Made by a program: the position numbers and the translations under genes
Assembly: GCA_013360215.1 (NCBI GenBank)
Contig: JABWCP010000006.1
Location: forward strand, 40,470 to 104,469
Direction: 5' to 3'
Length of the DNA stretch: 64,000 nucleotides
DNA from: a bacterium
GTDB taxonomy: Bacteria; CLD3; SB21
Notes under the pieces: model-generated
What the model was told of the DNA's origin: nothing
The model's input: the letters and a program-made list of their open reading frames with translations, nothing else
The model's database searches: none
Shown here: positions 4,603-38,628 of the stretch, in pieces
Layout: each line of letters opens with the position of its first letter
How positions within the stretch are numbered: position 1 is the first letter of the stretch

Positions 4603-6092
4603 TGTTAAGGTGGTTTTCTTTTACAGTTCTATTCTTTTGCAGTACGGATTTTAGTTTGGTAGCGCAGTATAATGCATTTAACCAGCGTGATGATAAATAT
4701 CCGCTGTTGGGATTAAAACGCGCCAAAGAGGTTTATGAATCGGAGAAAGCCGAATACGAACGCGTTAAACAATTGTTTGATAAACAACTGGCTTCACCCG
4801 CGGAACTGGAACGGGCCCGGCGTTCACTGGCCGATGTTGAGGTGAACTATCAGCAATCGCTGTTGGCGGTGCTGTTTGAACAGCAATTTATCACGGTGTC
4901 ACGCGCGGTTAAATATCAGGACAAACGCGGACAGAAGCGTGTTCGTGTCGAACTGATGAACACCTCCGGCGGTGAGGCGGAATTTCGTAAGTTGATTTCC
5001 ATGGAAGACGAGCTATTTCGTTCCTTACAACCGGACCACATTAATAATATCTACGTCTCCGTAACGAACACGGAAGGTGCGATCATCAGTCAACCGTACG
5101 AATCCAAAGTCAACGAATTGATCTACGGACAGCCCGTGACACTGGATTTTGTAATGTTGCAAGATTTGGATGTGGTGAGCGTGAATATTATTTATGGTAA
5201 CGGTGCATCGCGCAGCATGCGGATTTTTTTACAAAAAGACGCCACGGAAAATAAAGTATTATTCCAATCCGAGCAGTTTTCACAGGAAGCAGATCTCGGG
5301 AGCAATGCCACATTTGATCTTACGTTGGAGTTATTCAGCGGCACGGATAATACGTTTAAGCTGGAAGTATTGAACCTCCCGCCGGAACTGACGCGTTATT
5401 TTCTTGATGCGGCAACCAATGCTAAACTCAGCCAGTTAAAGTTTACCGAATCGGCGCGTACCCGTAAGGCATCGCTCCGCGTTTTTCTGCCGGATCGTCC
5501 TACCGAACAAGTCCAAATCGAAAAAACGATTCCGTTTTATGTATTAGCGATACCGCAGGAAAAGCAGGCACTCATCCAAACGCAACGCGATAAGGTGTGG
5601 TCCCAACAAGAGATCGAATCGCTCAACGCAGGCTATCTCCGGCTGGAACTCATCGTCAAAGGCAATGCACGTTTATTGGTCAAAGCGCCCAAGTTGTATT
5701 ATGCCACGACAGAATCCGAGCCTGTAGAAGCATCACTTGAAATTCGCAACGACGGTTCACGCCGCCTTGATAACATCAAGTTTGAAGTGGATCTGCCCTT
5801 GGAATGGAAGAAGGAAATACAATCGCTGATGATTCCTTCGATCCATGTAAACGAAGAGTCGGTTGTGCGATTTAAGTTTTATCCGCCGGAACACGTGGCC
5901 GTCGGTAAATACGAAGTGCGCATCCGAACTTCATCCGTCTCCGATAATCAACCGGTCAATGCCGAGGATAAGGTAATTACTATTGATATTCAGGCGGGAA
6001 GTAATGTTTTGGGCACGATGGCGCTGATCGTTCTGATTCTAAGCATTATCGGTGGAATAGTTTGGTTCGGCATTAAACTCACACGTAAATAG
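4602..6092 (+). CDS. Membrane-anchored protein with hydrophobic N- and C-termini; possible GldG-like ABC-2 auxiliary component
   Basis: 496 aa; N-terminal hydrophobic segment and C-terminal TM (LGTMALIVLILSIIGGIVWFGIKL). Sits immediately upstream of the ABC ATPase. The GldG analogy is inference from topology and context. Confidence 0.4.
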   Translation: MLRWFSFTVLFFCSTDFSLVAQYNAFNQRDDKYPLLGLKRAKEVYESEKAEYERVKQLFDKQLASPAELERARRSLADVEVNYQQSLLAVLFEQQFITVSRAVKYQDKRGQKRVRVELMNTSGGEAEFRKLISMEDELFRSLQPDHINNIYVSVTNTEGAIISQPYESKVNELIYGQPVTLDFVMLQDLDVVSVNIIYGNGASRSMRIFLQKDATENKVLFQSEQFSQEADLGSNATFDLTLELFSGTDNTFKLEVLNLPPELTRYFLDAATNAKLSQLKFTESARTRKASLRVFLPDRPTEQVQIEKTIPFYVLAIPQEKQALIQTQRDKVWSQQEIESLNAGYLRLELIVKGNARLLVKAPKLYYATTESEPVEASLEIRNDGSRRLDNIKFEVDLPLEWKKEIQSLMIPSIHVNEESVVRFKFYPPEHVAVGKYEVRIRTSSVSDNQPVNAEDKVITIDIQAGSNVLGTMALIVLILSIIGGIVWFGIKLTRK

Positions 6093-9706: not shown

Positions 9707-11170
9707 ATGTTATCGCTATTGATCATCAAAGAATTTAAAAACATACTGCAAAGCCCTAAATTTTTAGCCACATTTATATCGTGTACGCTATTGATCATCC
9801 TCAGTGTGTGGGTCGGTATCCGTGAATACAAGCTGGCCGTGAAAGATTACGAAACAGGCATAGCGCTTAACCGGCAAGATTTGAGTGAACAAACCAATTG
9901 GATGAATGTAGGTAATCGGGTATATCGCAAACCGGATCCTATGCAGATATGGACATTTGGAGTCCATTACGATATTGGACGCGTCGCGCATGTCAACACA
10001 TGGGATTCACCCGAACTGCGCAGCAGCATTTATTCCCGCGATCTCGTGTATGCCGTATTTCGGTTTTTGGATTTCAATTTTATAGTCGTAGTGGTGTTAT
10101 CGTTATTTGCTATCGTATTTACATACGATGCGGTAAGCGGTGAAAAAGAAAGCGGTATGCTAAAGCTTACGTTTTCCAACGGTGTCCCTAAATCCACATA
10201 CATCGTTGCAAAAATCATCGGCTCATGGGCGGGTTTGGGAATTCCATTGATCGTGCCGATGCTGCTATCATTTTTGATGGCGATATTATTGCAAATACCT
10301 CTCACACCCGATCACTATGCTCGTTTAGGCGGTTTATTTTTGTCGGGTGCGCTCTACTTTACTTTTTTTATAATTTTGGGAATTCTGATCTCATCATGGA
10401 CTTCGCACTCGACCGCATCGTTTCTCACTTTACTTGTTTTATGGGTTACGATCACCTTTGTCGTGCCGCGCCTCGGTGTTATGCTATCGGGGCAGGTTTT
10501 ACCGGTGCCCACAGCCGCCGAAGTGGATAGCCAAATCGAAGGTTTTTCCAAGTCGCAATTTGAAACATTGCGCCAAAACCTTTCGGAAACCTGGATGAAA
10601 CGCAATAATGACGTGCAGCAACAACCGGAATCCGAGCGACAGATGTACCGCGATAAGATGGAGTGGACATGGCTGGAAGAAGATCAAAATGCCCGCAAGT
10701 CCGTACAGGAAAACATTGAAAGTTTTACACGCAAAGTACATGAAGAACTGGATAACCGAAAACGCGAGCAAATCGAACTGGGTTTGATCTTTGCGCGCTG
10801 GTCGCCGGCTTCGTTATTTCAGCTCGCGGCAATGCGTTTTTCGCAGACCGATATTTTTCTGAAAGAGCGTTACGACGGCGCGATACGTACCTATCAAAAA
10901 GATTTTTCCGATGTTGTGGAAAAAAAACGCCGAGAAAATAGAGCCGAAGGACTGCGTATCGAAGTGGATAGCGATCGCGGATTTCGCGTGCAAACACCGG
11001 ATTTGAAAAAAACGATTGATGTGCGATCCATCCCGGAATTTACACATCCAGCCGTTTCCGCCGGGCATGCATGGCGGTTATCGGTTTGGGATATTGTACT
11101 CCTCGCCGTGATAACAGGATTTGCCTTTTTGGGAGCGTTGGTGCGATTTCTGCGCTACGATGTACGCTAA
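9707..11170 (+). CDS. ABC-2 family transporter permease (tandem paralog)
   Basis: Same architecture and conserved termini as 8282..9694. Confidence 0.6.
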   Translation: MLSLLIIKEFKNILQSPKFLATFISCTLLIILSVWVGIREYKLAVKDYETGIALNRQDLSEQTNWMNVGNRVYRKPDPMQIWTFGVHYDIGRVAHVNTWDSPELRSSIYSRDLVYAVFRFLDFNFIVVVVLSLFAIVFTYDAVSGEKESGMLKLTFSNGVPKSTYIVAKIIGSWAGLGIPLIVPMLLSFLMAILLQIPLTPDHYARLGGLFLSGALYFTFFIILGILISSWTSHSTASFLTLLVLWVTITFVVPRLGVMLSGQVLPVPTAAEVDSQIEGFSKSQFETLRQNLSETWMKRNNDVQQQPESERQMYRDKMEWTWLEEDQNARKSVQENIESFTRKVHEELDNRKREQIELGLIFARWSPASLFQLAAMRFSQTDIFLKERYDGAIRTYQKDFSDVVEKKRRENRAEGLRIEVDSDRGFRVQTPDLKKTIDVRSIPEFTHPAVSAGHAWRLSVWDIVLLAVITGFAFLGALVRFLRYDVR

Positions 11171-19039: not shown

Positions 19040-20359
19040 ATGAAAAAATCAGGAACGCATTTGAAAAAAATATATATGATGGCCACATGGATCATGGTGG
19101 TGTTCACTTCCGTCGCACAGGCTCAGGATTTGCCGACGCCCGCATCATCCCAAAAGCAGCCGATTCTGTTACGCAATGGTCGCGTACATGTCGGTGATGG
19201 GCGTGTGCTGGAAAAAACGGACATCCTTCTGGATAACGGTAAAATCATCGAAATTGGCCCTGGGCTTAGCAAACCTTCCACCGCACGTGAGGTGGACGCA
19301 ACGGGAAAAGAAATTTATCCCGGGTTGATTGCCTGCTATAGCACGCTCGGTTTGTCGGAGATCGAAGCGGCACGCCCGACGCGTGATGATCGGGAAGTCG
19401 GTTCGATCAATCCCAATGCGCGCGCATTGATAGCGTTTAACACCGATTCCCGTGTTATTCCTACCGTGCGCTCCAATGGCGTGCTTCTGGCGCAAATCAC
19501 GCCGCAGGGAGGCACGTTGTCGGGAACGGCTTCCGTCGTTCAGCTGGATGCATGGAACTATGAAGACGCGGTGGTTTCTGCGGACAATGGTTTGATCGTG
19601 CAGTGGCCGTCTATGTCGATCTCCAGTAGTATATTTGCGCCGCCGGCCGATGTTCAAAAGAAAAACTCGGAAAAAGCATTAAACGAGCTATTCAAAGCTT
19701 TTGAGGATGCGTATGCGTATTTTACAGCTAAAAAAACCGGTAATTCTGCCGCGCTTGATTTAAAATGGGAGTCTGTGATTCCTGTTTTTGAAAAGAAAAG
19801 ACGGGTATTCATTCGTGCCAATGATGCTAAACAAATTCAGGCGGCCGTGGCACTTTTGAAGAAATACGATATACTCGGCGCGATTATCGGCGGTTATGAT
19901 AGTTGGCGCGTCGCACCGCTCTTGAAAGAGCATAATATACCAGTTATCATCACGGATACGCATGCGATACCCGGGCGTGAAGATGAAGACTACGATCTGC
20001 GTTACAAACTGCCCAAACTCTTGCTGGATGCCGGTGTTACATTTGCCATTACCATAGACGGCAGTTGGCAACAGCGGAATTTGGCGTTTCAAGCCGGATC
20101 GGGCGTGGCTTTTGGTTTGTCTAAAGAAGAAGCGTTGACGGCTATCACTAAGTCACCGGCCGAAATTTTAGGTATAAATGATCGTATGGGTACTATAGAA
20201 AAAGGTAAAGATGCGACCTTGATCGTGGTAAGCGGTGATATTATGGACATGCGTACATCTATAGTAGAGCAGGCATTTATACAAGGCCGGGATATTGATC
20301 TTGGTAATAAACAAACCGATCTGTATCAACGGTTTAAGAAAAAGTATGATCAAAACTGA
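19040..20359 (+). CDS. Secreted amidohydrolase-family protein
   Basis: Signal peptide; amidohydrolase-like fold motifs. Lies 9 nt after the previous gene, so probably co-transcribed. Confidence 0.75.
   Translation: MKKSGTHLKKIYMMATWIMVVFTSVAQAQDLPTPASSQKQPILLRNGRVHVGDGRVLEKTDILLDNGKIIEIGPGLSKPSTAREVDATGKEIYPGLIACYSTLGLSEIEAARPTRDDREVGSINPNARALIAFNTDSRVIPTVRSNGVLLAQITPQGGTLSGTASVVQLDAWNYEDAVVSADNGLIVQWPSMSISSSIFAPPADVQKKNSEKALNELFKAFEDAYAYFTAKKTGNSAALDLKWESVIPVFEKKRRVFIRANDAKQIQAAVALLKKYDILGAIIGGYDSWRVAPLLKEHNIPVIITDTHAIPGREDEDYDLRYKLPKLLLDAGVTFAITIDGSWQQRNLAFQAGSGVAFGLSKEEALTAITKSPAEILGINDRMGTIEKGKDATLIVVSGDIMDMRTSIVEQAFIQGRDIDLGNKQTDLYQRFKKKYDQN
20279..20350. repeat. Left copy of a 72-bp direct repeat (3' end of the amidohydrolase gene); candidate attL-like boundary
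   Basis: atacaaggccgggatattgatcttggtaataaacaaaccgatctgtatcaacggtttaagaaaaagtatgat recurs at 38749..38830 with 4 mismatches. Confidence 0.6.
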
Positions 20360-20392
20360 ATATCTTGATAACAGGAGATCATTTTAATCATT

Positions 20393-20419
20393 GAAAGCGG
20401 GCCAAAGCCCGCTTTTTTT
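20393..20419 (+). terminator. Rho-independent terminator after the amidohydrolase operon
   Basis: aaagcgggccaaagcccgc hairpin followed by a T7 run. Confidence 0.6.
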
Positions 20420-20741
20420 ATAAAAAGCCTGGCTTGTAATATTTTAGTTCAAATTGGTTTCAAAAGCCACGTTATCAAGTTGATGATGGGATGTAACTAT
20501 CAAATTAATTTTATCCATTGGCGAGGATGGCTTTTTCATAAGGCGATTCATTTTGCTTCACAGAGCGAAACAGGGGACAAATACCCGGGATATCATTCAC
20601 ATGAAAATAGGGTTTGAATTGTCGAATATGGCCATGAGTTTTAGAATACAGATACGAACAAGCGAAAATTTTGGTAATTCAAATTGAAAGTTGAACTTAG
20701 GTATTGAACTTTGGGCTATCAGATGATTTCGAAATTATTTG

Positions 20742-23204
20742 TCAGTATTTTTTCTTTTTTCTTAATCTTCCGATGAAAGGGGATACGATAATAATCGCGA
20801 AAGGAATGAACAAAAAAGCGATAAACTCATACGGCACGCGGTGCAAGGGAATTGTCTCAGGGTTGCCCCAGAGCATGAGCCCCGCCCAGTAATAAGGCGA
20901 TTGTTTCAGTTCATACGCCTCATTGATATATTTTAGTTTCGCTTGCCGTAGCGCTTCTGCACGCGTAAGTCCGGATGCAATACCTTCATAAAATGCACTC
21001 ATAATCATGGCTGTTGCTTCGTCATCAATATCCCAAGCGGACATGATCAGGCTGTATGCACCAGCATACGCAAAAGCTTGATTGAAACCCATGAGCCCTT
21101 CGCCGGCGACGGGTTTGCCCAAGCCGGTGCGGCAGGCGCTTAAAACGACAAGGTCAGCATCAATACGAAAGTCATAGATGTCATACATTTTAAGAGAACT
21201 GTGATCCGAAAAAAAAATTTGTGAATACATCGGTTCGATATCGGATACGACAGCGTGAGTAGCGAAATCTATGATTTTATAATTAGCGATATGGGATATT
21301 ATTTCATTTACTGAAAGATGGTTAACCCAATATCGGCTTTTATCAAATGTGTTTGAGCTGCTAATCATCTGTTTTTCAGTGTAAGGCAGATCACTTCGTA
21401 GTGAAGATGAAGCAAATGCAAATCCAGCATAGTGGCGAGGTGCGTTTGAAAAACGACGAACGCGATCTAACCAAAAACTGGCTGATATGGCGTAAACTAT
21501 AGGATAATGTCGAAGCAAAATATCGTTAGGTTTATCTGATGAAAGTAACAATTCAAAGGGCAAACGGGTTAATGGCCCGTCTGGGACAACGATGAGTGTT
21601 TTATTTTTATCAAGAATGTCTTCAAAAGGGTGAATCAACGCATTGTATAATTTTCTGCTCGCCACTTCGTCCGTGGTTTGATTTGTACAGACAGTTTCAG
21701 CCCATCGGATTAAACTATCTTTACGGATTCCTGAAATATTTATTTTCATCGTATCGCCAGTAATAAAAAACGAAATCAACGAATCTTCACAGAGGCCGTA
21801 CTCTATTAGTTGGTAGGACTGACCCAATGCGTCCTTTAAAGCGTTCGAGGATTGATTTGTATTTTCAAATGGTGATTTCGCAGAATCCTCCAAAAAAAGT
21901 AAAGAGTCTAACAGGTGAACTCGTTCGGTATCCCATATGCGGGCCTCATGCAGAGCTATGGGATGATTTTGATATTGGCCAAAGATATTTCGAATGCGTC
22001 GATCAATTGAAGATAAACTGTCTGATAAAGCTTTCAGTGATCTATTACCGCTAAGTCGGAGCAGTTTGGATGAGTACAGTGATTTAGTATTTTCAATGAG
22101 GTTAAATGCGACTTGAGTTTTTCCTTGTCTGGCATAAAAACGCGCGGCATGTAGATAAGCAGGGACGATATTTTTAGAAATAGCAACAATGGAGATACCT
22201 TTATTTAATTCAGCCTTTTTAGTAGCTAACATGATAGAGCGACGGTACAAGCTGTCGGCTTCTTCTATTTTAGATTGTGATTCGGCCACTCTAGCTAATC
22301 CGGAACAAGCCGTCCAGTTTTCCATTAATAAATTCAATGCAGTTTTATAAGAAACAGAGGCTTTATCCCATTTGCCGATACGTTCATAATAGTATCCCAA
22401 TTCGCTGTACACGACATCTGCTTCGCTTTTCAACGTTTTTATTTCTTCAACGGATCGTAGTTGATTCTTTATTGCTTCTTCGTATTTGTTTTGTTTGTAA
22501 TACAATTCAGCGATGCCCGAATAAGCGCTTAATTTACGATCATTTGGCTGAATATGGAGCTTAGAACTCATTGCCAAAACTCGATTAAAATACTCTTCCG
22601 ATTTTCGAAACTCATTAGTTTCTCTGAAAATTCTTCCCATCTGAAGGTAGGTCGAGCTTAATTCATACTCATCATGTAGTCGCTCAAAAAAAATATTACA
22701 TGAATCAAAACAAGCTAGTGCTTCGCGGTAATTACCAAGATGAAAATTGACTAATCCTAATCGGTTAAGTGTAGAGTAATACGGATGCGGTTTCTTTTTA
22801 AACACGGAATCAGCGCGTGCAATTTTAATTGCCTCATGTAGGAGTAGTAGAGAAGAGGAATATTCGTTGAGCATCAGTTTGTAGTGCGCTTCAAAAGATA
22901 AAGCATAAACCAGCCAATCAGGATAATGTGTATTTAAAAATATCTGTTGAGACTTACGGGTAGGATCAATCGCAGAAGCATAGTCGTTAATATTTTGATA
23001 AAACACTCCTATCCGAAGATATTCAATACCGCAACGCATAGAGTCAGTTCGGTTGCTCAATGATGAAATCAAACTATCCAAAACATGCAACGCACCGCGT
23101 GGGTTGCTTTCATTCAGCATTTTTTGGATTGGCTTGAAATCTTGTGATGAAGCTTTTGTGAATACAACCAAACAATACATCACAAAATAAAGGAACTTAA
23201 TCAT
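20742..23204 (-). CDS. TPR-repeat + CHAT-domain (caspase-like) protease with signal peptide and C-terminal TM anchor
   Basis: N-terminal signal peptide; ~350 aa of TPR-like repeats. CHAT His-Cys dyad context (DFATHAVV ... LVVLSACRTGLGK); C-terminal hydrophobic helix and a KKKKY tail. Confidence 0.8.
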   Translation of the reverse strand: MIKFLYFVMYCLVVFTKASSQDFKPIQKMLNESNPRGALHVLDSLISSLSNRTDSMRCGIEYLRIGVFYQNINDYASAIDPTRKSQQIFLNTHYPDWLVYALSFEAHYKLMLNEYSSSLLLLHEAIKIARADSVFKKKPHPYYSTLNRLGLVNFHLGNYREALACFDSCNIFFERLHDEYELSSTYLQMGRIFRETNEFRKSEEYFNRVLAMSSKLHIQPNDRKLSAYSGIAELYYKQNKYEEAIKNQLRSVEEIKTLKSEADVVYSELGYYYERIGKWDKASVSYKTALNLLMENWTACSGLARVAESQSKIEEADSLYRRSIMLATKKAELNKGISIVAISKNIVPAYLHAARFYARQGKTQVAFNLIENTKSLYSSKLLRLSGNRSLKALSDSLSSIDRRIRNIFGQYQNHPIALHEARIWDTERVHLLDSLLFLEDSAKSPFENTNQSSNALKDALGQSYQLIEYGLCEDSLISFFITGDTMKINISGIRKDSLIRWAETVCTNQTTDEVASRKLYNALIHPFEDILDKNKTLIVVPDGPLTRLPFELLLSSDKPNDILLRHYPIVYAISASFWLDRVRRFSNAPRHYAGFAFASSSLRSDLPYTEKQMISSSNTFDKSRYWVNHLSVNEIISHIANYKIIDFATHAVVSDIEPMYSQIFFSDHSSLKMYDIYDFRIDADLVVLSACRTGLGKPVAGEGLMGFNQAFAYAGAYSLIMSAWDIDDEATAMIMSAFYEGIASGLTRAEALRQAKLKYINEAYELKQSPYYWAGLMLWGNPETIPLHRVPYEFIAFLFIPFAIIIVSPFIGRLRKKKKY

Positions 23205-23281
23205 AAGGAATGGCGTTTAATGTAGAAGTCTCTCTCAATTTAATTTATCGTCCTACCCATCTCAAAAAGAGGAGTGTTTGT

Positions 23282-23908
23282 ATGAAAAAGATCGCTCTCT
23301 GCGTTTCAGGCACTTTTACGCTTGCAATTATTTATGCTTTGTACGGTATTTTAGGGCCAGTTAACACAACTGACACCAATGATTCGGGCACAGCTATTCC
23401 ACCGACCGGAGGAGGTAATGATGTTCAAATATCCAATAGGCCGATCAGTGATCCTAATTCCTACCTATCCATAACTTTACCAAAAAACATTATTGCCGAC
23501 ATTTCTATCAATGTAATTAACAATGGTGACGCCGATGGTCAGCCTAATTACATCGTAATGTCTCAATATTATATGACGATGTGGGATGACGGTTTGCCGG
23601 AAGTGAAATCTCATAACGATGTGCTGACCAAAGTTCAAATTATTCGTGATAAAATATTAAAATTTAAATCACAAAACATTTTCTCCCGTTATCCAATGGG
23701 TACTGTGCTGACAGGGGATACAATTTTTGTAGAAATCGACGGTAAAGCTGTATCCCTTGGCGAACTGATACGTTTTGGGTTTTATTTTAACTCCGGCAAA
23801 ACGACGCCGTACGACGAGTATTATTGCAAAATAGGAATGAGAAATTACGGCATCAAAATCGAAGTTCGTAACAAAGGTTTCATGAAATACTTTGACAGCT
23901 CGCATTAA
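23282..23908 (+). CDS. Secreted hypothetical protein
   Basis: AGAGGAG RBS, signal-anchor, 208 aa. Divergent from the CHAT gene (78-bp spacer). Confidence 0.45.
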   Translation: MKKIALCVSGTFTLAIIYALYGILGPVNTTDTNDSGTAIPPTGGGNDVQISNRPISDPNSYLSITLPKNIIADISINVINNGDADGQPNYIVMSQYYMTMWDDGLPEVKSHNDVLTKVQIIRDKILKFKSQNIFSRYPMGTVLTGDTIFVEIDGKAVSLGELIRFGFYFNSGKTTPYDEYYCKIGMRNYGIKIEVRNKGFMKYFDSSH

Positions 23909-24090
23909 ATATAGCTTGAAACGGTTTTGTAATGTTTCAGAAAGTGCAGATTTATGTCAGGTACAGTTTTTTTACATAGATATTATTCATGATTCAATGG
24001 GTATTTACATATACCGACATATGATTTACTTGCTTTTACTTGTTCGGTATTTTCAAAAAACGTTTCATATGTTTTTTTACGAATTAAAAA

Positions 24091-24723
24091 CTATTCGCTG
24101 ATGTATTTATTTATTTGTGCTGTGAGTATTTCGACACGCAAAAAAACTTTGGAGTTGGTTGTAAGTTTACGAACTGATTCCAATGTGTTTAATGTGAGTA
24201 CTAGTTTTTCTTTATCATACCTCGGAAACAAACCCAGAGTCGTTTCTTTGGATTCAAATAACAATCGCACACCTTCTTTGAAGAGCCGGATATCCTCCGG
24301 CTCTTTTTCATTGGAACCGCGGGTCGCGGCGGGTGCTATGGCAAACTCATAATCCTTTTGAAACTGCGCCAAGCCTTGCGGCCCGTGATCGAACCGATAA
24401 TTTACATAAGCCACTAGGCCGGAATAACTCCCGACTATGATCAAAAAAATGGCTGCGGCGCGTAACCACACGGTTTTTGTCAAATTAGATTTTACAGAAG
24501 GTGTGGTTTTCTGTTGGAGCCGTGCAAAATGATTTTCCGAGGGGGTTAGTCGATCTAATCCCGTTTTACGATCCAGCATGACCTGTAATTCAGCCTGAGC
24601 ATTCGGATCCAGATCTATGCGTCGGCGAATAGATTCTTCTTTTTCCGGTGTCAAAGGAAAATGACTGCGCATCGCATAGTCGGCAATTTCCTGACGGCTG
24701 AGTTTTTCTTTTGAGTCCAGCAT
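24091..24723 (-). CDS. Putative membrane anti-sigma factor (single TM)
   Basis: Immediately downstream of the sigma-factor gene on the same strand (24-nt gap). ~95 aa cytoplasmic N-domain, one TM (LRAAAIFLIIVGSYSGLVAYV), ~95 aa periplasmic C-domain. Assignment is by context. Confidence 0.5.
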   Translation of the reverse strand: MLDSKEKLSRQEIADYAMRSHFPLTPEKEESIRRRIDLDPNAQAELQVMLDRKTGLDRLTPSENHFARLQQKTTPSVKSNLTKTVWLRAAAIFLIIVGSYSGLVAYVNYRFDHGPQGLAQFQKDYEFAIAPAATRGSNEKEPEDIRLFKEGVRLLFESKETTLGLFPRYDKEKLVLTLNTLESVRKLTTNSKVFLRVEILTAQINKYISE

Positions 24724-24747
24724 ACAATCTCTTACGGTATAGACAAT

Positions 24748-25398
24748 TTAGGGGTTCGGTTCATAACTCTCTGCATAGGCTTCGCGGATTGTATGGGAAT
24801 TGCGAAGCGCTTTGATGCCACGCGCAAAATACGCGCGTATGGTTTCCACGCTGTGTCCCATCTCCTGAGCGATCACATGATACTCTTTATCTTCCCATAT
24901 TTTTTTGTGAATAACCGTCTGTACATAGTCCGGAAGTTGGCGCATTTCTCCGGAGATGATTCTGTCAAAAAACAGTTTTACATCCAAATCATGTATCATG
25001 GACCTATCGGCTTCGTTACCGATCACTTCTGTCAGTACTTCGTTCCACTGTTCCGGATGACAAGAACGAATATAGTTGAGAAAGCGATACTTGCAGATGA
25101 CCGAAAGCCATCCCGCAAAATGCGACGGGGTATGCACATGAGCGTGTTTTTGAATGAATAAAAAATAGACTTCTTCGATAAGTTTTTCGGCATCACCGGC
25201 AGAGTGAATTTGCCCGCAAAGAAACTTGCGAAAAAAATATCTTCTCGTCCAGCAATAAACCCAAGTTTGTACCCATTCGCCGTCATTTGCTTTGCCAATC
25301 AGACGCCATTGCACAAAACGATGGTTCACCGCATCGGCATTATCTAATTGAAAATCAATGGCTTTGAGCAATGTGCCCGGCAACTGATCTGAATCCAT
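24748..25398 (-). CDS. Sigma-70 family (ECF-type) RNA polymerase sigma factor with ~65 aa N-terminal extension
   Basis: Region 2 (EEVYFLFIQKHAHVHTPSHFAGWLSVICKYRFLNYIR) and region 4 HTH (YHVIAQEMGHSVETIRAYFARGIKALR). Confidence 0.75.
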   Translation of the reverse strand: MDSDQLPGTLLKAIDFQLDNADAVNHRFVQWRLIGKANDGEWVQTWVYCWTRRYFFRKFLCGQIHSAGDAEKLIEEVYFLFIQKHAHVHTPSHFAGWLSVICKYRFLNYIRSCHPEQWNEVLTEVIGNEADRSMIHDLDVKLFFDRIISGEMRQLPDYVQTVIHKKIWEDKEYHVIAQEMGHSVETIRAYFARGIKALRNSHTIREAYAESYEPNP

Positions 25399-25669
25399 GA
25401 GGGAAAGTAGTTATGAAATAACCAAGAACGGTGTCTATATGAGTAAACAAAGTTAAACATCGGTATGGCGATGTACAAGAAAATTATTTCTTAAAAACTT
25501 TTTGTGAATTTTGTTCATAGGAAAATCGAGTATGTAATGTTTTCCGCTCTTAGAGCAATGAGTAACTGCGAAGTGTGTAATATGCTCTAAAACTTCCACT
25601 GCCAAATAACTAAGTATTTAATAATTTCGTTCTAATTGAATTGTTAAACCAAATTTAGGAGGAGATGTT

Positions 25670-26683
25670 ATGATCCGTTTTTTTATCGGCATTTTCATTT
25701 TCTTTCTTACCGCACAAGCTAGTTCTCAGAATGTTAAGCTAATAAGAAAAGGTGAGATCAAGGAACACGATATCAATTCTGCAATAACCGCAATATTTGG
25801 ATCTAAACTAGACACTGCTGTTTTGGCGATTATGGATGACGGAAATGCGATAACTTGGACGCTTGGAGGTAAATCCGTAAAACAGGGCGCAGTTCTTAAC
25901 GCCAGGGTATTTTATATCTTTGTTGCCGGTAATCGGATTATGGATGAACCGTCTGTCAATTATATCAAAAACAAATCTGCAATCGAAAATTCAGTGAATG
26001 ACATTTTGAGTTTTATTAAGCAATCAAATCGGTTCGGAATATATAGCGCCAAAAGTAACGGGGGCAACATCCCATATAAGGTATATGAAGTTTCAAATAT
26101 TAAACCCCCGGGAAACGCTGAAATAATTATAGATGTGATTCAAGATGACAACTCAAGAATGAGCAAGAAGATAACAGTTCCAATCCATGAGTTGAATTGG
26201 GCACTGCTTAAAGTCGGTGTGCAGCAGAGCAAGTTTGTCAAAAATGATTTTAGAATCAGCGAAGGTCGAATCATTGCATCACCTGATAGTGCACATCGGA
26301 AAGAATGGAAACAGCAGTTGTTCGTAGCGATTGAAGTGCATTGGCCTCGCGATCCGGAAACTTATAATCCGAACATATACAACTGGAAAAAACATAATTA
26401 TGACCGTTTGGGGTTGTTCACTGGCTTAAAATTGTCAAAAGCCCCCTTAGATGTCTTTTTTATTGGAAGTACGGTTGATCTTTTTAAAGATTTTTCTTTT
26501 GTCGGCGGTCTATCATGGAAAAAAATTTATAAAAACGAATCTGTAGCAATCGGGAATGTGTCTTCGCTTAAGACAGCCAAAAACTACCTGACCCAAAAAT
26601 ATTCTAAGCCAACGTGGTTTTGGGGCTTAGCTCTATCGCCATCTGCAATGGCAGAATCACTTGGGTTAAAAGAAAAACAATGA
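25670..26683 (+). CDS. Secreted hypothetical protein
   Basis: GGAGGAG RBS and signal peptide MIRFFIGIFIFFLTAQASSQ; 337 aa. Confidence 0.5.
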   Translation: MIRFFIGIFIFFLTAQASSQNVKLIRKGEIKEHDINSAITAIFGSKLDTAVLAIMDDGNAITWTLGGKSVKQGAVLNARVFYIFVAGNRIMDEPSVNYIKNKSAIENSVNDILSFIKQSNRFGIYSAKSNGGNIPYKVYEVSNIKPPGNAEIIIDVIQDDNSRMSKKITVPIHELNWALLKVGVQQSKFVKNDFRISEGRIIASPDSAHRKEWKQQLFVAIEVHWPRDPETYNPNIYNWKKHNYDRLGLFTGLKLSKAPLDVFFIGSTVDLFKDFSFVGGLSWKKIYKNESVAIGNVSSLKTAKNYLTQKYSKPTWFWGLALSPSAMAESLGLKEKQ

Positions 26684-26850
26684 ACGATCATCGCGCTATA
26701 TGACCGTTATGTATTTTCATTAGAATTTATTATAACTACGAAAGCCGCAAATTTTGGAGACAGAGTCTTTTCTTTTTTAGAAAAACAAATATTTCAATGT
26801 GCTTTTGGGGTTATTCATAGAAGTTAAACATCTTCAAAAGAAGGAGTTTT

Positions 26851-27374
26851 ATGAAAAAAATCATTTTTTTTTCTTGCTTCTGTGGGCTCATGATGTCTTT
26901 TCTCAGTCAGACAATTCGTCTGAAGATGAAAAGCCTTGGCTTAAAAAGCATTTCAATGTCAAGTCGGGTTGGGGATATAGATTTTGGCTGGTACGGCTTG
27001 AGGAGAGGTTTTATATTGATTTGAAAGAAAAACATCATAAGGAAATCGATGTTTTTAAACATGGAAAAATAGGAGCTCCGGGGTCTCAGATTTTGAGTAT
27101 AGATGCGTATCATGGATTTGATAAAGGCTTTCTTAGATTGGGGGTAAACGGTTCTTTAGGTCATGCCACTACCGCTGATCAAGAAGAAGAGCTACTCATA
27201 TGGACGGCAGGAGGATTTATTCAATTTGGCAGAGCAATCCGAATTGAAGGTGGCATAATAAAGGCTTTTAGTGCGGATATAGCATCGGATGGTAGGCAAG
27301 ATGATCGTGCATGCTATATAGGCCTGTCATATCCCTACGATTTGATAGATGTAATAAACGAATTTACTCAATGA
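26851..27374 (+). pseudogene. Secreted hypothetical protein gene interrupted by a frameshift in a T9 homopolymer (26864..26872)
   Basis: ATG 26851 with AAGGAG 7 nt upstream opens MKKIIFF, then shifts frame. The 191-aa ORF (26799..27374) has no ATG and no signal peptide. One extra T in the T9 run gives MKKIIFFFLLLWAHDVFSQ..., a clean signal peptide in frame with the long ORF. Confidence 0.5.
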
Positions 27375-27446
27375 AGTTTATAGTCGGGTTTTGATTTAAA
27401 CTTTCAAATTTATGCGCCGAACATTTTACGTAGCATAGATCTTCAT

Positions 27447-27478
27447 GAAAGCCGGAAAATTAACCGGCTTTTTTTTGT
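27447..27478 (+). terminator. Rho-independent terminator
   Basis: agccgg-aaaattaa-ccggct hairpin followed by T8. Confidence 0.55.
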
Positions 27479-27682
27479 TACCACTAAAAATTAAGGAAAA
27501 TAATACCTTTCTCAAATGCATCCAACCCCGACGCAGTTATAATCTTTTCATTACAAAGCCACTATATACTTTATCGCCTCATTGATGTATCACCAAATTT
27601 ACATCAGAAATAATCCGCCTGCTGCTATTGAGCACACTCTCAAATAGTTATCAAAGACTTAAAGTGTTCACACAGAGTTGTA

Positions 27683-27911
27683 TTTTCTCGTCCAGCAATA
27701 AACCCAAGTTTGTACCTATTCGTCGTCATTTGCTTTGCCCATCAGACGCCATTGCACAAAACGATCTTTCGTTATCTAATTGAAAATCAATGGCTTTGAG
27801 CAATGTGCCCGACATATGACCTGAATCCATGAGGGAATGCAGTTATGTAATAACCAAGAATGGTGTCTATATGAGTAAATAAAGTTAAACACCATAGCTA
27901 CGATGTACAAG
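27683..27911 (-). repeat. Degenerate duplicate of the promoter/5'UTR/first ~55 codons of the ECF sigma-factor gene (gene fragment)
   Basis: ~230 bp at ~88% identity to 25238..25479, including the start codon (27828-27830 on the minus strand). A 13-bp deletion breaks the frame. Confidence 0.7.
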
Positions 27912-28054
27912 ATTTTTTTGCATAAGCGCGTATTCAGAATTTCCACGCGTGCTATGGGAGATGGAAATTCTGTCGTCTAAATTTAAGCACACGTCTTTTG
28001 GGTCTAATTCCTTTTTTGGTTCTCATATTCGTCTTTTAAGGGGTCTGTACGGCT

Positions 28055-28360
28055 ATGTCTAAAAGCAGCAAATACGATGCGACACGTGAATTTATAGATG
28101 CACTTACGGAAATCATCGCCGAACCGCACCAGCATGTATTGGACAAGGTTATACTAATATGTACGCGCCTCAGAGGTTCTTACGTACCGTCTGAAAAATA
28201 TGTGCTTCGTCAGAAAGCGGTGCGTGATGTGGTCGAAATGCATCATCGCGGCATGCCGGTGCGCCTCATCATCGAAAAAACAGGTCTGAAAAAATCAACC
28301 GTGTACAAAATAATCAAAGACCAAAACGGCGGTATTTCTGAAAAGACCAATACGAAATAA
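28055..28360 (+). CDS. Small HTH DNA-binding protein (putative transcriptional regulator), paralog A
   Basis: 101 aa; C-terminal HTH-like GLKKSTVYKIIK. ~60% identical to the protein at 38308..38628. Confidence 0.6.
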   Translation: MSKSSKYDATREFIDALTEIIAEPHQHVLDKVILICTRLRGSYVPSEKYVLRQKAVRDVVEMHHRGMPVRLIIEKTGLKKSTVYKIIKDQNGGISEKTNTK

Positions 28361-31256: not shown

Positions 31257-33692
31257 ATGAAAAAAATCATTCTCATATCATTATTATTTGCACAAAATTG
31301 GAATCCTATTTATTCTCAAGAACAAATTTTACTACCTTCGTTCACGTCAGGATTTGATAAACCATCGGGTTCTGGAGCGGTGATCTCGGCATCCATCGGT
31401 GTGATCGCTGCCGATACCAGTACGGGTTCGGGCGTTTCACTGGGCGGAGGATTTTTCGGTTATACGATCAATACGGTGCCGCCGACACGCGTTGCTAATT
31501 TTACCGCCAATCCGGTAGATACCACACAAGTGACACTGGCATGGCAAGCAAGTATAGGGGACACGTCAAGTTTTCGTTATTTCATATATCGCGGCGCTAC
31601 GCGTACCGGCGCTTATCAGCGTGTGGATTCGACGATCAGAACGCAACTGAATATCAATGATATAGGTCGTGTACGCAAAACAGTGTACTTTTATTACGTG
31701 ACTGCAAAAAATCGTTGGGGTACTTCTTACACATCAGACACGGCACAGGTCACGACCTACGGCGAACCCGATACGCCTTCCAGCTTTACGGCACAATTGG
31801 AGTCAGGCAAAGTCAATCGCATCCAGATGACATGGTCAGCTTCAGATTTTGACCCGTCGCAGTATAAAATCTACAGATCAAACCAAGCAACAACCGGTTT
31901 TGTTGCTATAGATTCTGTCCATAGCGGTACTTTAGTATTCACCGATAGCACACTGCAATTGGGTGCGACATACTACTACAATGTTCGGGCAAAGAATAGT
32001 TGGGGAGAGTCGGCACCCACCATCACGCGCAATGTTACATCCGGAAATCTGACGCTGGCCTATTCCGGTACACCGCCTACCAATGTCACAGAAAATCAAT
32101 CAGCGCTCGTACAGGCTACGATCAATGCGGATCGGGGCAATGGGGATATCGTGAAGCTGTATTATAAGGCCGGCGGCGCGGCTTCTTATTCGGATTCGGC
32201 AGATATGAATTATTCCGGAGGCGTATATTCATATTCGATTCCGTGGAATAAGATTGCTTCGCGCGGTGCCGTTTATTTTGTTCGTGCTCGTGTGGGTAAT
32301 TCAAACCAATCGGAATCTGAAAAACATATCACCGCTGCTATAACTTCCGGTGTGACCAAAAGTAATAGTCAGCCTGTAGCAGTAGCCAAAAAACATGACC
32401 TATCCAAATTTGAAATTATCTCCATTCCTCTCGACATCACCGGCGCAAAAGATGTGAATACAGTGCTTGGATCAATTTTTGGAGAAAAGGGCAAAGAGTG
32501 GGAAATATGGAACTATAGCAGCGGCAATCAGATTTTTACCGGTAATATTGCTTCCGGAAAAGGGTATTGGTTCATTACGACCAAAGAGGGTTCGCTTAAA
32601 ACCGGCGCGGCCAAAACTTTTACTACCGAAACGCCATACACTGTGAGCGTACAGTCAGGATGGAATATTATCGGCAATCCGTTCCATTTCGACGTTTCGA
32701 CGTCGGATATTATTCCCTCTTCCGGAGTCTCTATTGAAAATTCTAAATTCTACACTTGGGGCGTCAACAAAGATTGGCAGGAAGTAAGTTCGATCAAACC
32801 GTGGTTCGGTTACTACGTAAAAGTCATCGGCAATGGGAATTTGCTTATTTATCCTAAAGCGGCCGGGAGTGTTTCTAAACCTCTTATGAGAAGCGTTGCA
32901 TCGGATTTTGACAAAGGCGAATGGTTGATCAATATTCAAGCCGTAAGCGAAGAAATCGCAGATAAACATAATTTTATCGGTGCGCTTTCCCATGCGGATG
33001 ATGCCGTGGATGAAGAAGATTATTACGATACACCGTTACCGCCGGGCGATCAGCGTCTGCACCTCTATTTTCCGCATAAGGATTGGGGATCGAAGTCTGA
33101 TGACTACGGGATCGATATGCGCCGCGTATCGGAGGAAGGCCATACGTGGGATTTTGAAGTGTCAACGAATATCACGCGTTCTCATATAGTGATCGGCGAG
33201 CCGGTGAATCTGCCGGAAAATTTCAGTGTGCGCGTTATGGATACGGATTTGCGTGTAATGTACGATGCGAAGCAACAAAAAGAAATTCCTGTAATCCTGA
33301 CTTCCAAAACGAGCGACGCGCGACATTATAAAGTGCTCGTAGGAACGGAAGCATATATCAATGCGCACGATATGGGTTTTTTGGGCTTGCCTACAGGATT
33401 CGAATTAAATCAAAACTATCCCAATCCCTTTAATCCGACAACGACAATCAAGTTTGCGCTTCCCGTTGCATCAAAAATTGAAATTACGATTTATAATGCT
33501 TTAGGTCAGGTGGTGCGTAAGCTTGCAGATCGCGAGTATGCGGCGGGGTATCAGTTCGCCCAATGGGACGGAAAAGACAATCGTGGAAGCATGGCGGCGT
33601 CCGGAGTGTACATCTACCGTCTGACCGCACGCAGTTTAGACGGTTCAGGTAAAAGTTTTACGAAATCCCAAAAGATGCTGCTGATGAAGTGA
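31257..33692 (+). CDS. Secreted fibronectin-type-III repeat protein with T9SS (Por) C-terminal sorting domain
   Basis: Signal peptide; FN3-like modules (W/Y/T pattern: LAWQAS...YFYYVTAKN; MTWSAS...YYYNVRAKN). C-terminal NQNYPNPFNPTTTIKFALP...IYNALGQVV...GVYIYRL is a typical T9SS CTD. Confidence 0.75.
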   Translation: MKKIILISLLFAQNWNPIYSQEQILLPSFTSGFDKPSGSGAVISASIGVIAADTSTGSGVSLGGGFFGYTINTVPPTRVANFTANPVDTTQVTLAWQASIGDTSSFRYFIYRGATRTGAYQRVDSTIRTQLNINDIGRVRKTVYFYYVTAKNRWGTSYTSDTAQVTTYGEPDTPSSFTAQLESGKVNRIQMTWSASDFDPSQYKIYRSNQATTGFVAIDSVHSGTLVFTDSTLQLGATYYYNVRAKNSWGESAPTITRNVTSGNLTLAYSGTPPTNVTENQSALVQATINADRGNGDIVKLYYKAGGAASYSDSADMNYSGGVYSYSIPWNKIASRGAVYFVRARVGNSNQSESEKHITAAITSGVTKSNSQPVAVAKKHDLSKFEIISIPLDITGAKDVNTVLGSIFGEKGKEWEIWNYSSGNQIFTGNIASGKGYWFITTKEGSLKTGAAKTFTTETPYTVSVQSGWNIIGNPFHFDVSTSDIIPSSGVSIENSKFYTWGVNKDWQEVSSIKPWFGYYVKVIGNGNLLIYPKAAGSVSKPLMRSVASDFDKGEWLINIQAVSEEIADKHNFIGALSHADDAVDEEDYYDTPLPPGDQRLHLYFPHKDWGSKSDDYGIDMRRVSEEGHTWDFEVSTNITRSHIVIGEPVNLPENFSVRVMDTDLRVMYDAKQQKEIPVILTSKTSDARHYKVLVGTEAYINAHDMGFLGLPTGFELNQNYPNPFNPTTTIKFALPVASKIEITIYNALGQVVRKLADREYAAGYQFAQWDGKDNRGSMAASGVYIYRLTARSLDGSGKSFTKSQKMLLMK

Positions 33693-37236: not shown

Positions 37237-37857
37237 ATGTATGTGCTTATTGTAGATGATCATGCCGTTGTACGCTTTGGCGTTGAAAAAATATTGAGCG
37301 CCGAATTTAAAGAAGTACGTATTGACGAAGCATCCGACGGAGAAAAAGCTTTGGAGCTATTCAGAATTTCGGATTATGATCTTATTTTGCTTGATATGGC
37401 TCTACCCGGGCGCAATGGGTTTGATGTCCTTCGGCATATTAAGACTGAAAAACCGGATCAGCGTGTTTTGGTATTATCTATGCAGACACAGGAGGAGTAT
37501 GCCTTACGCGTGCTCAAGGCCGGTGCAAACGCTTTTGTCTGTAAGACATCACTGACGGATGAACTTATTGTAGCCATACATCGTGTAATGCGAGGCGGTA
37601 GATTTGTCTCCGCACCTATTGCCGAAGCCGTGACTGTATCATTTGGAACGGATGAGGTTATACACCGAAAACTCTCTCAGCGCGAATTTCAGGTGTTGTG
37701 CCTGATCGGTGGCGGGAAAACGGTAACTGAGATAGCGGACGAATTGTGCATCAGTGTAAAAACGGTCAGCACCTTACGTGAGCGCTTATTGAAAAAACTA
37801 GGACTGAATACCACGGCTGAAATCATACGTTATGCGATCGAGAATAAATTTGTCTGA
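37237..37857 (+). CDS. Response regulator, NarL/LuxR family
   Basis: MYVLIVDDH receiver; C-terminal LuxR HTH (LSQREFQVLCLIGGGKTVTEIADELCISVKTV). ATG lies 1 nt after the kinase stop codon. Confidence 0.85.
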   Translation: MYVLIVDDHAVVRFGVEKILSAEFKEVRIDEASDGEKALELFRISDYDLILLDMALPGRNGFDVLRHIKTEKPDQRVLVLSMQTQEEYALRVLKAGANAFVCKTSLTDELIVAIHRVMRGGRFVSAPIAEAVTVSFGTDEVIHRKLSQREFQVLCLIGGGKTVTEIADELCISVKTVSTLRERLLKKLGLNTTAEIIRYAIENKFV

Positions 37858-38307: not shown

Positions 38308-38628
38308 GTGAAAAACGAGAAATACGATACAACAAGAGAATTTGTAACGACGTTGAGCGAAATAATAGCTCAACCGGGTCATCATGTACTGGATAAAATT
38401 GTTTCCATTTGTTCACGATTAAGGGGTACGTACGTACCATCGGCAAAGTACGTTCTTCGCCAGAGCGCCATTCATCGTGTGATTGATTTGCACCATCAGG
38501 GCAAGTCGGTTCGTGAAATTACCGCTTCCGTTGGTTTAAAAAAATCTACCGTTTATAAAATTCTCAAAGAGCATCACTTCAATGTGTGCACCCTCAAAAA
38601 ACGAAACGCGGGAACTGTAACTGCATAG
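38308..38628 (+). CDS. Small HTH DNA-binding protein, paralog B (GTG start)
   Basis: 106 aa; GLKKSTVYKILK HTH; paralog of 28055..28360. AAGGTGG RBS upstream of GTG. Confidence 0.55.
   Translation: MKNEKYDTTREFVTTLSEIIAQPGHHVLDKIVSICSRLRGTYVPSAKYVLRQSAIHRVIDLHHQGKSVREITASVGLKKSTVYKILKEHHFNVCTLKKRNAGTVTA

Follow-up and report, generated by a model that had tools for sequence, protein, structure and literature searches.

The stretch analysed here, a 64-kb window of contig JABWCP010000006.1 from a bacterial assembly, carries at positions 20742-25398 a cassette of four genes for a TPR-CHAT protease, a small exported protein, a membrane anti-sigma factor and an alternative sigma factor of the extracytoplasmic function (ECF) type. 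The adjacency of these genes is more than chance, because the same order and orientation are found in five lineages whose visible flanks differ. By analogy, the cassette is most likely nearest in function to the DdvA-DdvS system of Myxococcus xanthus, with the sensor/protease placed on a separate polypeptide, and only this split two-protein form appears to be new. We give an even chance to the reading that it constitutes a four-component envelope signalling module, a split version of DdvA-DdvS in which the CHAT protease would cut the anti-sigma factor in trans.

The four genes and their products

A sequence-only reading of this DNA had described a TPR-CHAT protein accompanied by a sigma factor, a single-pass protein in the anti-sigma position and a small secreted protein, and all four open reading frames (ORFs) were confirmed at the same positions: the CHAT, anti-sigma-like and sigma genes on the reverse strand and the small ORF on the forward strand. 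The anti-sigma-like protein (24091-24723) and the TPR-CHAT protein (20742-23204) are encoded by two separate genes with an opposite-strand gene in between. The same reading had remarked that gRAMP/Cas7-11, cas genes and an array of clustered regularly interspaced short palindromic repeats (CRISPR) were missing, and our scans agree. Across the 64 kb we found no CRISPR or tandem array, no tRNA, no cas gene and no PADLOC match, nor any ORF of Cas7-11 size, the largest ones encoding a histidine/sensor kinase of 1028 aa and an amidohydrolase of 1007 aa. The other genes of the window are ordinary chromosomal genes.

The TPR-CHAT caspase-like protein (20742..23204, reverse strand) is 820 aa long and consists of a predicted signal peptide (residues 1-21; 23142-23204), a TPR solenoid (residues ~24-437; 21894-23135), a CHAT domain (Pfam residues 516-781; 20862-21659) and a transmembrane (TM) anchor (residues 789-815; 20760-20840) followed by a basic tail, all encoded on the reverse strand. 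The match to Pfam CHAT (PF12770) has an E value of 3.5e-51 and 174.8 bits against a cut-off of 24, and covers profile positions 4-289 of 289; about a dozen TPR families match residues ~145-325. The His/Cys dyad motifs pointed out from the sequence are real. His650 (motif FATHAV; codon 21255..21257, reverse strand) and Cys691 (motif LSACRTG; codon 21132..21134, reverse strand), the putative catalytic pair, belong to the only four columns without variation when the protein of the window is aligned with 40 distant TPR-CHAT proteins (41 in all), and both are unchanged in all five cassette orthologues. The AlphaFold2 (AF2) model of the protein is confident, with a predicted local distance difference test score (pLDDT) of 84 and a predicted template modelling score (pTM) of 0.81, and displays a helix at residues 2-20 and a TPR solenoid extending to ~437; the alpha/beta CHAT domain occupies residues 453-780, and the terminal helix (792-819) is followed by the basic sequence RLRKKKKY.

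Since the orthologues retain the N-terminal hydrophobic signal, the C-terminal hydrophobic helix and the basic tail, the prediction is for a periplasmic protein anchored in the inner membrane by its tail, with its catalytic domain ~10 residues from the bilayer. This predicted topology supports the proposal, made from the signal peptide and the C-terminal TM segment, that the protease is periplasmic and faces the tail of the anti-sigma-like protein. The start annotated by NCBI is Met29, which gives a product of 792 aa and would drop the signal peptide. We favour the long form because other gene callers use the 820-aa start and because the orthologues keep the N-terminal hydrophobic segment. Taken together with the short start of the small gene (see below), it leaves a divergent intergenic region of 77 nt, to be compared with 75-80 nt in the related contigs L004 and L010.

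The anti-sigma-like protein (24091..24723, reverse strand; 210 aa) is encoded 24 nt downstream of the sigma gene, a distance which is 45-52 nt in L002, L004, L006 and L010. It has one hydrophobic span (residues 85-108), with a predicted N-in/C-out orientation and a periplasmic tail of ~102 aa, and gives a weak match to an anti-sigma model (NF010501, anti-sigmaE, 3.6e-4). Its AF2 model contains a three-helix cytoplasmic N-domain, with helices at residues 10-57 predicted at a pLDDT of ~80-87; a Foldseek search with the overall low-confidence model (pLDDT 63) returned nothing better than E 1.7. Five homologues were found by a word-indexed search, and 12 clusters at E <1e-10 came out of 1.84 billion representatives searched exhaustively with a profile. 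Within the family, the zinc motif HxxxCxxC is present in 13 of 15 members, zf-HC2 is matched below threshold by 7 of the 15, and the best PDB match of the family profile is the zinc-binding anti-sigma (ZAS) factor RsiW (5WUQ; E 0.039). By these three sequence features, the family appears to be of the ZAS type.

Nearly all the invariant columns of the 15 members (F111, G117, L118, D124, A128, R135, K149, G151, F156 and Y169) lie in the juxtamembrane periplasmic segment N108-D170 (24214..24402, reverse strand), a candidate docking or cleavage region with the pattern NYRFDHGP.GLA.F..DYEFA....RG..KEPEDIRLFKEGVR.LF.SK.TT.GLFPRYD. The sequence EPEDIR was considered as a separase-like ExxR site and dropped because its Arg varies in the wider family; only Arg135 (codon 24319-24321, reverse strand) is invariant. 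Furthermore, ~30 proteins of 300-380 aa (P0101-P0129) weakly match the TM and periplasmic part of the anti-sigma profile. They have in common a GLFP.YD motif followed by TPR-like repeats and, from their sequences, may form a related family of anti-sigma-like membrane proteins.

The small exported protein is encoded on the forward strand (23282..23908) between the anti-sigma and CHAT genes. Its ORF opens at 23210, and the start is most likely Met25 (23282), preferred because it yields an N-terminal hydrophobic export signal in a product of 208 aa. An opposite-strand gene for a protein of ~185-208 aa is found at this position in each of the five cassettes, with products that can be aligned. This is the fastest-evolving of the four proteins, with only 21-29% identity between clades; the motifs held in common are G.PPP, L.LTI and PY.EYY.KI, in addition to a lipobox-like or hydrophobic N-terminal signal, the lipobox-like form being found in three of the five cassettes (L002, L004 and L006). 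No match to the small protein was found in Pfam, NCBIfam, PADLOC or PDB.

Finally, the gene at 24748..25398 (reverse strand) encodes a divergent ECF-type protein of the sigma-70 family (216 aa) with an N-terminal extension of ~55 aa. In total, 34 NCBIfam sigma-70/ECF models and three Pfam models align with residues 58-201, which include both the sigma-2 and the sigma-4 regions. The best of these matches is TIGR02985 (1.7e-15), the others including TIGR02937 (1e-6) and the Pfam families Sigma70_r2 and r4_2. The best PDB match is the ECF factor SigE (E 0.006), and a word-indexed search returned just six close homologues.

Conservation of the cassette and its candidate promoter motif

The sequence-only reading had proposed conservation of the TPR-CHAT/ECF neighbourhood as a check, and the same four genes indeed recur in all five lineages with sufficiently long contigs, which belong to three deep clades: the window (counted with the partial contig L009), L002/L008, L004, L010 and L006. 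The order is invariably sigma gene, anti-sigma gene (~205 aa), opposite-strand gene for the exported protein and TPR-CHAT gene (~825 aa). In the four lineages whose flanks are visible, the neighbouring genes are unrelated: the window has amidohydrolases, L002 a pyridoxal decarboxylase, L004 a trypsin-PDZ protease and L006 a prenyltransferase. The four proteins co-diverge across the cassettes, with identities of 43-70% for the sigma factor, 31-65% for the anti-sigma-like protein, 33-57% for the CHAT protein and 21-61% for the small protein. Two divergent anti-sigma homologues lie on contigs too short to reveal a cassette. Scanning 185,579 species genomes gave one locus, in a metagenome-assembled genome (MAG) labelled as uncultured Bacteroidota, while scans of JGI metagenomes gave nothing.

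The DNA motif AGACA-N15/16-CATAAC occurs at four exact sites in the window, where 0.03 are expected. One site, with the N16 spacing, lies in sense orientation at 25410..25436 (reverse strand) and ends 11 nt upstream of the sigma ATG; a second one lies in antisense orientation at 24741..24767 (forward strand), spanning the stop codon of the sigma gene and its junction with the anti-sigma gene; a third is found in a duplicated copy of the sigma 5′ end (27842-27868, reverse strand) and the fourth, again antisense, within the final 30 nt of the gene for a LuxR-type response regulator (37829-37855, reverse strand). The sense site upstream of the sigma gene is also present in L009, L002 (two copies), L010, L006 and, with one mismatch, L004, and the antisense junction site is exact in L009, L002, L004 and L006 and degenerate (two mismatches) in L010. 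The motif sites of these contigs are at 9793-9818, 9869-9894 and 10636-10662 in L002, at 117-142 and 888-914 in L004, at 190-215, 920-945 and 2532-2557 in L006, at 119-145 in L010, and at 4798-4824 and 5467-5493 in L009. The spacing of the two blocks is compatible with a -35/-10 pair of ECF type; judged from sequence, the motif may be a promoter of the cassette's own sigma factor, which would imply autoregulation, as well as a conserved antisense promoter.

In L002, L004 and L010, a sigma-70-like element TTGACT-17-TA(A/G)(G/C)TT is found nearer the sigma gene as well. Scanning for generic sigma-70 promoters gave 10 sites where 15 are expected, which is not above chance. Upstream of the CHAT and small genes, the motif was not found in four of the five lineages (window, L002, L004 and L010) when up to 1-2 mismatches were allowed, and k-mers common to the sigma-upstream and CHAT-upstream regions were uninformative except in L006.

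A link between TPR-CHAT and sigma genes extends beyond this family. Among cultured Bacteroidota, two loci of Aureibacter tunicatorum (L021 on pAT1 and L024 on pAT7), two of Chondrinema litorale (plasmid loci L022 and L025) and one of Mangrovibacterium diazotrophicum (L017) carry a sigma-70-family gene of a second family less than 3 kb from a TPR-CHAT gene. In four of these five loci, the CHAT protein combines a signal peptide with a C-terminal TM segment, one Aureibacter ORF having the TM segment only as annotated. Except in Mangrovibacterium, the sigma gene is followed by one for a ~240-aa single-pass protein with periplasmic TPR-like repeats, and the Aureibacter modules carry an additional lipoprotein gene upstream. 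The gene orders vary, being same-strand operons, divergent or convergent, and the annotations read just sigma factor, hypothetical protein and CHAT domain protein. The sigma factors and partners of this second family are homologous to one another and not to the pair of the window; homology between the two anti-sigma-like families is not claimed, the profile-profile match being weak (probability 45%, N-terminal and TM part only).

In another taxon (L015; GCA_966190215.1, 4445-8889), an ECF sigma factor, a zf-HC2 anti-sigma factor and a secreted TPR-CHAT protein devoid of a C-terminal anchor are encoded in one same-strand operon; adjoining this operon, and divergent from it, is the gene for a second CHAT protein, a CHAT-FGE-sulfatase fusion. 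No sigma gene was found beside CHAT in one Chondrinema locus or in Caballeronia, Sphingobium and Oscillatoria, nor in L016, in which little upstream DNA is visible. The Caballeronia homologue (plasmid locus L023, 3549-10870) lies beside a type VI secretion cluster, directly upstream of genes for a ShlB/FhaC transporter and a filamentous haemagglutinin. Overall, a sigma gene lies within 3 kb in 5 of 6 distant Bacteroidota TPR-CHAT loci, and the chance of such a link between unrelated genes is, on a rough estimate, a few percent. The exact family of the cassette is rare, and it belongs to a broader, undescribed Bacteroidota pattern.

The duplicated copy of the sigma 5′ end mentioned above is a decayed duplicate of the sigma promoter and of the first ~54 codons (27681..27932, reverse strand), a 252-bp copy of 25238-25489 with ~93% identity, in which an 11-nt deletion breaks the frame. 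The closest relative, L009, whose sigma factor is 94% identical, is colinear; there a single segment (4745-4996) maps by blastn to both copies, and the sigma gene directly faces a 101-aa helix-turn-helix (HTH) gene, with one copy and no insert. Because the sigma gene of L009 directly abuts the HTH gene, the window carries a lineage-specific insertion of 2.19 kb (25490-27680) flanked by the 252-bp duplication. The insertion encodes two exported proteins with no assigned function, of 337 aa (25670-26683) and 191 aa (26799-27374), and the repeat interrupts independent short-read assemblies of the same organism. The degenerate second promoter and 5′ end noted in the sequence-only reading are therefore real; the comparison with L009 makes them a local indel, not the sign of cassette recombination that they had been taken to hint at.

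The HTH gene that ancestrally faced the sigma gene (28055-28360, forward strand) has a 106-aa paralogue at 38308-38628 (forward strand), which shows ~68% DNA identity to the L009 copy and is arranged divergently in the same way, ~450 nt away from the fourth motif site. We considered that this fourth site might be the relic of a duplicated sigma/HTH segment and rejected the idea, as the intergenic regions do not align convincingly. The G+C content of the stretch 20001-28000, which contains the cassette and the insertion, is 0.37-0.41 against 0.46-0.49 in the flanks, which suggests an accessory or acquired region. In addition, Gln commonly comes right after the predicted signal peptides, as in secretory proteins of Bacteroidota (...ASS-QDF, ...VNA-QIP; products of the genes at 16007, 19040, 20742 on the reverse strand, 25670 and 29294 were compared), and type IX secretion C-terminal domains are encoded nearby (31257-33692). 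Both features fit an FCB-group origin of the source MAG.

Relation to DdvA-DdvS, Craspase and classical anti-sigma proteolysis

An envelope-facing TPR-CHAT protein linked to an ECF sigma factor has been described in M. xanthus as the DdvA-DdvS system (PMC6061681, PMC11506125), so that the idea of an envelope TPR-CHAT/ECF pathway has a precedent. DdvA is a transmembrane ZAS anti-sigma factor whose ~900-residue periplasmic TPR-CHAT part keeps RseP blocked and, according to a proposal, cuts itself out in trans (PMC11506125). The role of its CHAT domain as a site-1 protease, and CHAT cleavage itself, are likewise proposals; in DdvA the protease and the presumed substrate are one polypeptide (PMC11506125). 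DdvA-like fusions were reported just in Myxococcota and one Comamonas, and split forms are not mentioned (PMC11506125). In full-text searches, CHAT in combination with ECF factors, anti-sigma factors or the periplasm led to the DdvA and CRISPR papers only, and the paper reclassifying ECF factors does not mention CHAT.

Like DdvA, the cassette provides a predicted periplasmic TPR-CHAT moiety that contains the His-Cys dyad and is encoded together with the cognate ECF sigma factor. By sequence, the whole CHAT protein matched only TPR proteins in PDB, and the profile of its CHAT domain matched a single chain, 8rot_B, with a marginal E value of 0.023, across the H862/C907 dyad region; 8ROT is DdvA. 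On the other hand, DdvA is a fusion of ~990 aa in one polypeptide, which forms a dimer, whereas the TPR-CHAT protein of the cassette is separate and carries a signal peptide and a C-terminal anchor of its own, the anti-sigma-like protein is short with a conserved periplasmic domain of its own (~100 aa), and there is an extra small exported protein. Furthermore, the cassette belongs to a different lineage (one relative is labelled Bacteroidota), shares ~13% sequence identity with DdvA, and has no CRISPR island or cyclic-oligonucleotide-based anti-phage signalling system (CBASS) adjacent to it.

The sequence-only reading had instead likened the cassette to Craspase, as a relative of that system free of CRISPR. 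In type III-E Craspase, the TPR-CHAT protease Csx29, bound to Cas7-11/gRAMP, cleaves Csx30, which is encoded with Csx31 and the ECF sigma factor RpoE (PMC10028731; PDB 7Y9X, 8EEY). The fold and the pairing with a sigma gene speak for this comparison: the CHAT protein of the cassette has a TPR-CHAT fold like that of Csx29, and this is its closest fold. However, no sequence similarity to Csx29 was found by phmmer or profile search, and Csx29 is cytoplasmic and switched on by RNA-guided Cas7-11, whereas the protein of the cassette is predicted to be periplasmic and membrane-anchored. Comparison of the anti-sigma-like and small proteins with Csx30 and Csx31 gave no similarity in sequence or fold (PDB), and the former belongs to a family that is apparently of ZAS type instead. 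The Craspase analogy is thus good for fold and logic and not for membership, DdvA being the nearer precedent.

In classical regulated intramembrane proteolysis, exemplified by DegS/RseA/RseP-sigmaE and PrsW/RsiW/RasP-sigmaW, a membrane anti-sigma factor is degraded stepwise. The cassette resembles the RsiW and RseA systems in having a single-pass anti-sigma-like protein with a cytoplasmic sigma-binding domain, for which a periplasmic site-1 cut would be expected to license the site-2 protease. It differs from them in that the known site-1 proteases are serine or metalloproteases mostly encoded elsewhere, while the candidate here is a clan-CD cysteine protease encoded in the cassette itself. 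Separase-securin (PDB 5U1T, 7NJ0) was compared as well: separase is eukaryotic, cytoplasmic or nuclear and far larger, and the small protein of the cassette is unlike securin.

Proposed mechanism, alternatives and significance

Building on the computed domain identities, dyad conservation, predicted topology, synteny and motif enrichment, we infer the following sequence of events. The cytoplasmic N-domain of the anti-sigma-like protein would hold the ECF-type sigma factor at the inner membrane. The exported TPR-CHAT protein would be tethered to the same membrane through its C-terminal helix, placing the caspase-like domain within ~10 residues of it, and a periplasmic signal, probably a protein, would be read by the TPR solenoid, by the small exported protein or by both. 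Upon signalling, the His650/Cys691 protease would perform a site-1 cut in trans within the conserved juxtamembrane segment of the anti-sigma-like protein, after which a site-2 intramembrane protease would free the sigma factor. The latter would then transcribe from AGACA-N15/16-CATAAC promoters, its own included. The small exported protein would act as a modulator, possibly an inhibitor, a pseudosubstrate or a co-sensor. That the anti-sigma-like protein is most conserved right after the TM segment, on the periplasmic side, makes it a candidate substrate.

Several observations weigh against this mechanism. The CHAT gene is not co-transcribed with the sigma and anti-sigma genes, because the opposite-strand gene lies in between. 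All 34 NCBIfam models, as well as the other sigma models, match the sigma protein below their curated cut-offs (the best with 57.6 bits against 126.4), which is the reason why we call it a divergent ECF-type factor. The anti-sigma-like protein of the window lacks the HxxxCxxC motif, as does the family member P0087, the motif having been lost in the lineage of the window, and the pLDDT of its AF2 model, computed from a 5-sequence alignment, is <50 at residues 59-139, which comprise the TM span and much of the juxtamembrane segment. The four-gene arrangement may not be universal, since recG directly follows the anti-sigma gene in place of the small and CHAT genes on the 1.2-kb contig L019. In L006, the part of the CHAT gene encoding the signal peptide is out of frame with the remainder (2594-2840), owing to either a frameshift or an assembly error, and a sigma-type motif lies upstream of this CHAT gene, which fits an output or feedback role. 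Finally, even in DdvA, cleavage by CHAT has the status of a proposal.

Accordingly, other relations between the four genes have to be weighed. The TPR-CHAT and small proteins might be targets of the sigma factor or co-inherited effectors, involved for instance in the processing of envelope or surface proteins, while the anti-sigma-like protein would be inactivated otherwise. ECF sigma operons often adjoin their target genes, and CHAT is served by a divergent promoter region of its own, shared with the small gene; the motif upstream of CHAT in L006 and the terminal position of the CHAT gene in the sigma operons of L024 and L015, where output genes can be found, point in the same direction. Nevertheless, four of the five lineages (window, L002, L004 and L010) lack the candidate motif upstream of CHAT and of the small gene, which weakly favours CHAT as an input over CHAT as an output. 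The link also survives changes in gene order and exists with two unrelated sigma/anti-sigma families, and in DdvA the TPR-CHAT part physically belongs to the sensor side of the anti-sigma factor. We consider an output role unlikely. A cascade in which CHAT cuts the small exported protein, in a role like that of securin or Csx30, or another periplasmic protein, and in which the product or the relief of binding acts on the anti-sigma factor, appears quite unlikely. It would explain why the small protein is a constant fourth member and the fastest-evolving one, as expected of a sensor or decoy; the Aureibacter modules are accompanied by lipoproteins, and both separase and Craspase, related to the cassette by fold only, are governed by a dedicated small partner. 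However, the small protein bears no likeness to securin, Csx30 or known families, and the extreme juxtamembrane conservation of the anti-sigma-like protein is more simply explained by direct recognition.

The fold closest to Csx29 and the adjacent ECF sigma gene, as found in type III-E loci, would also be expected if the cassette were an accessory of a type III-E Craspase or of another CRISPR or defence system elsewhere in the genome. We regard this as very improbable, as neither a cas gene, an array nor a PADLOC match lies in the 64 kb, none of the other cassette flanks has cas genes, and a Csx30/Csx31-like partner is missing; the predicted periplasmic location of CHAT is, moreover, incompatible with docking on a cytoplasmic Cas7-11. 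TPR-CHAT proteins and ECF sigma factors are both abundant in Bacteroidota, and the genes could in principle be chance neighbours, yet the identical arrangement between differing flanks and the proximity of a sigma gene in most of the distant Bacteroidota loci leave this hardly credible.

A broader proposal can be made, to which we hold only tentatively. Exported, tail-anchored TPR-CHAT proteins may constitute an unrecognised class of trans-acting, caspase-like site-1 proteases, occurring in several lineages of Bacteroidota, associated with at least two sigma/anti-sigma families that are unrelated to each other, controlled by small partners and subject to feedback from an antisense promoter at the sigma/anti-sigma junction.

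The significance of the cassette lies in its split form, in which the protease and its putative substrate are separate proteins and a candidate regulator is encoded with them. As protease and substrate are separate, the hypothesis that CHAT acts as a site-1 protease becomes directly testable. If it is true, a clan-CD cysteine protease would join the short list of site-1 proteases, envelope signalling through ECF factors would be mechanistically tied to a switch of the Craspase/separase type, and a function would be at hand for some of the many genes annotated in Bacteroidota as "CHAT domain-containing protein".

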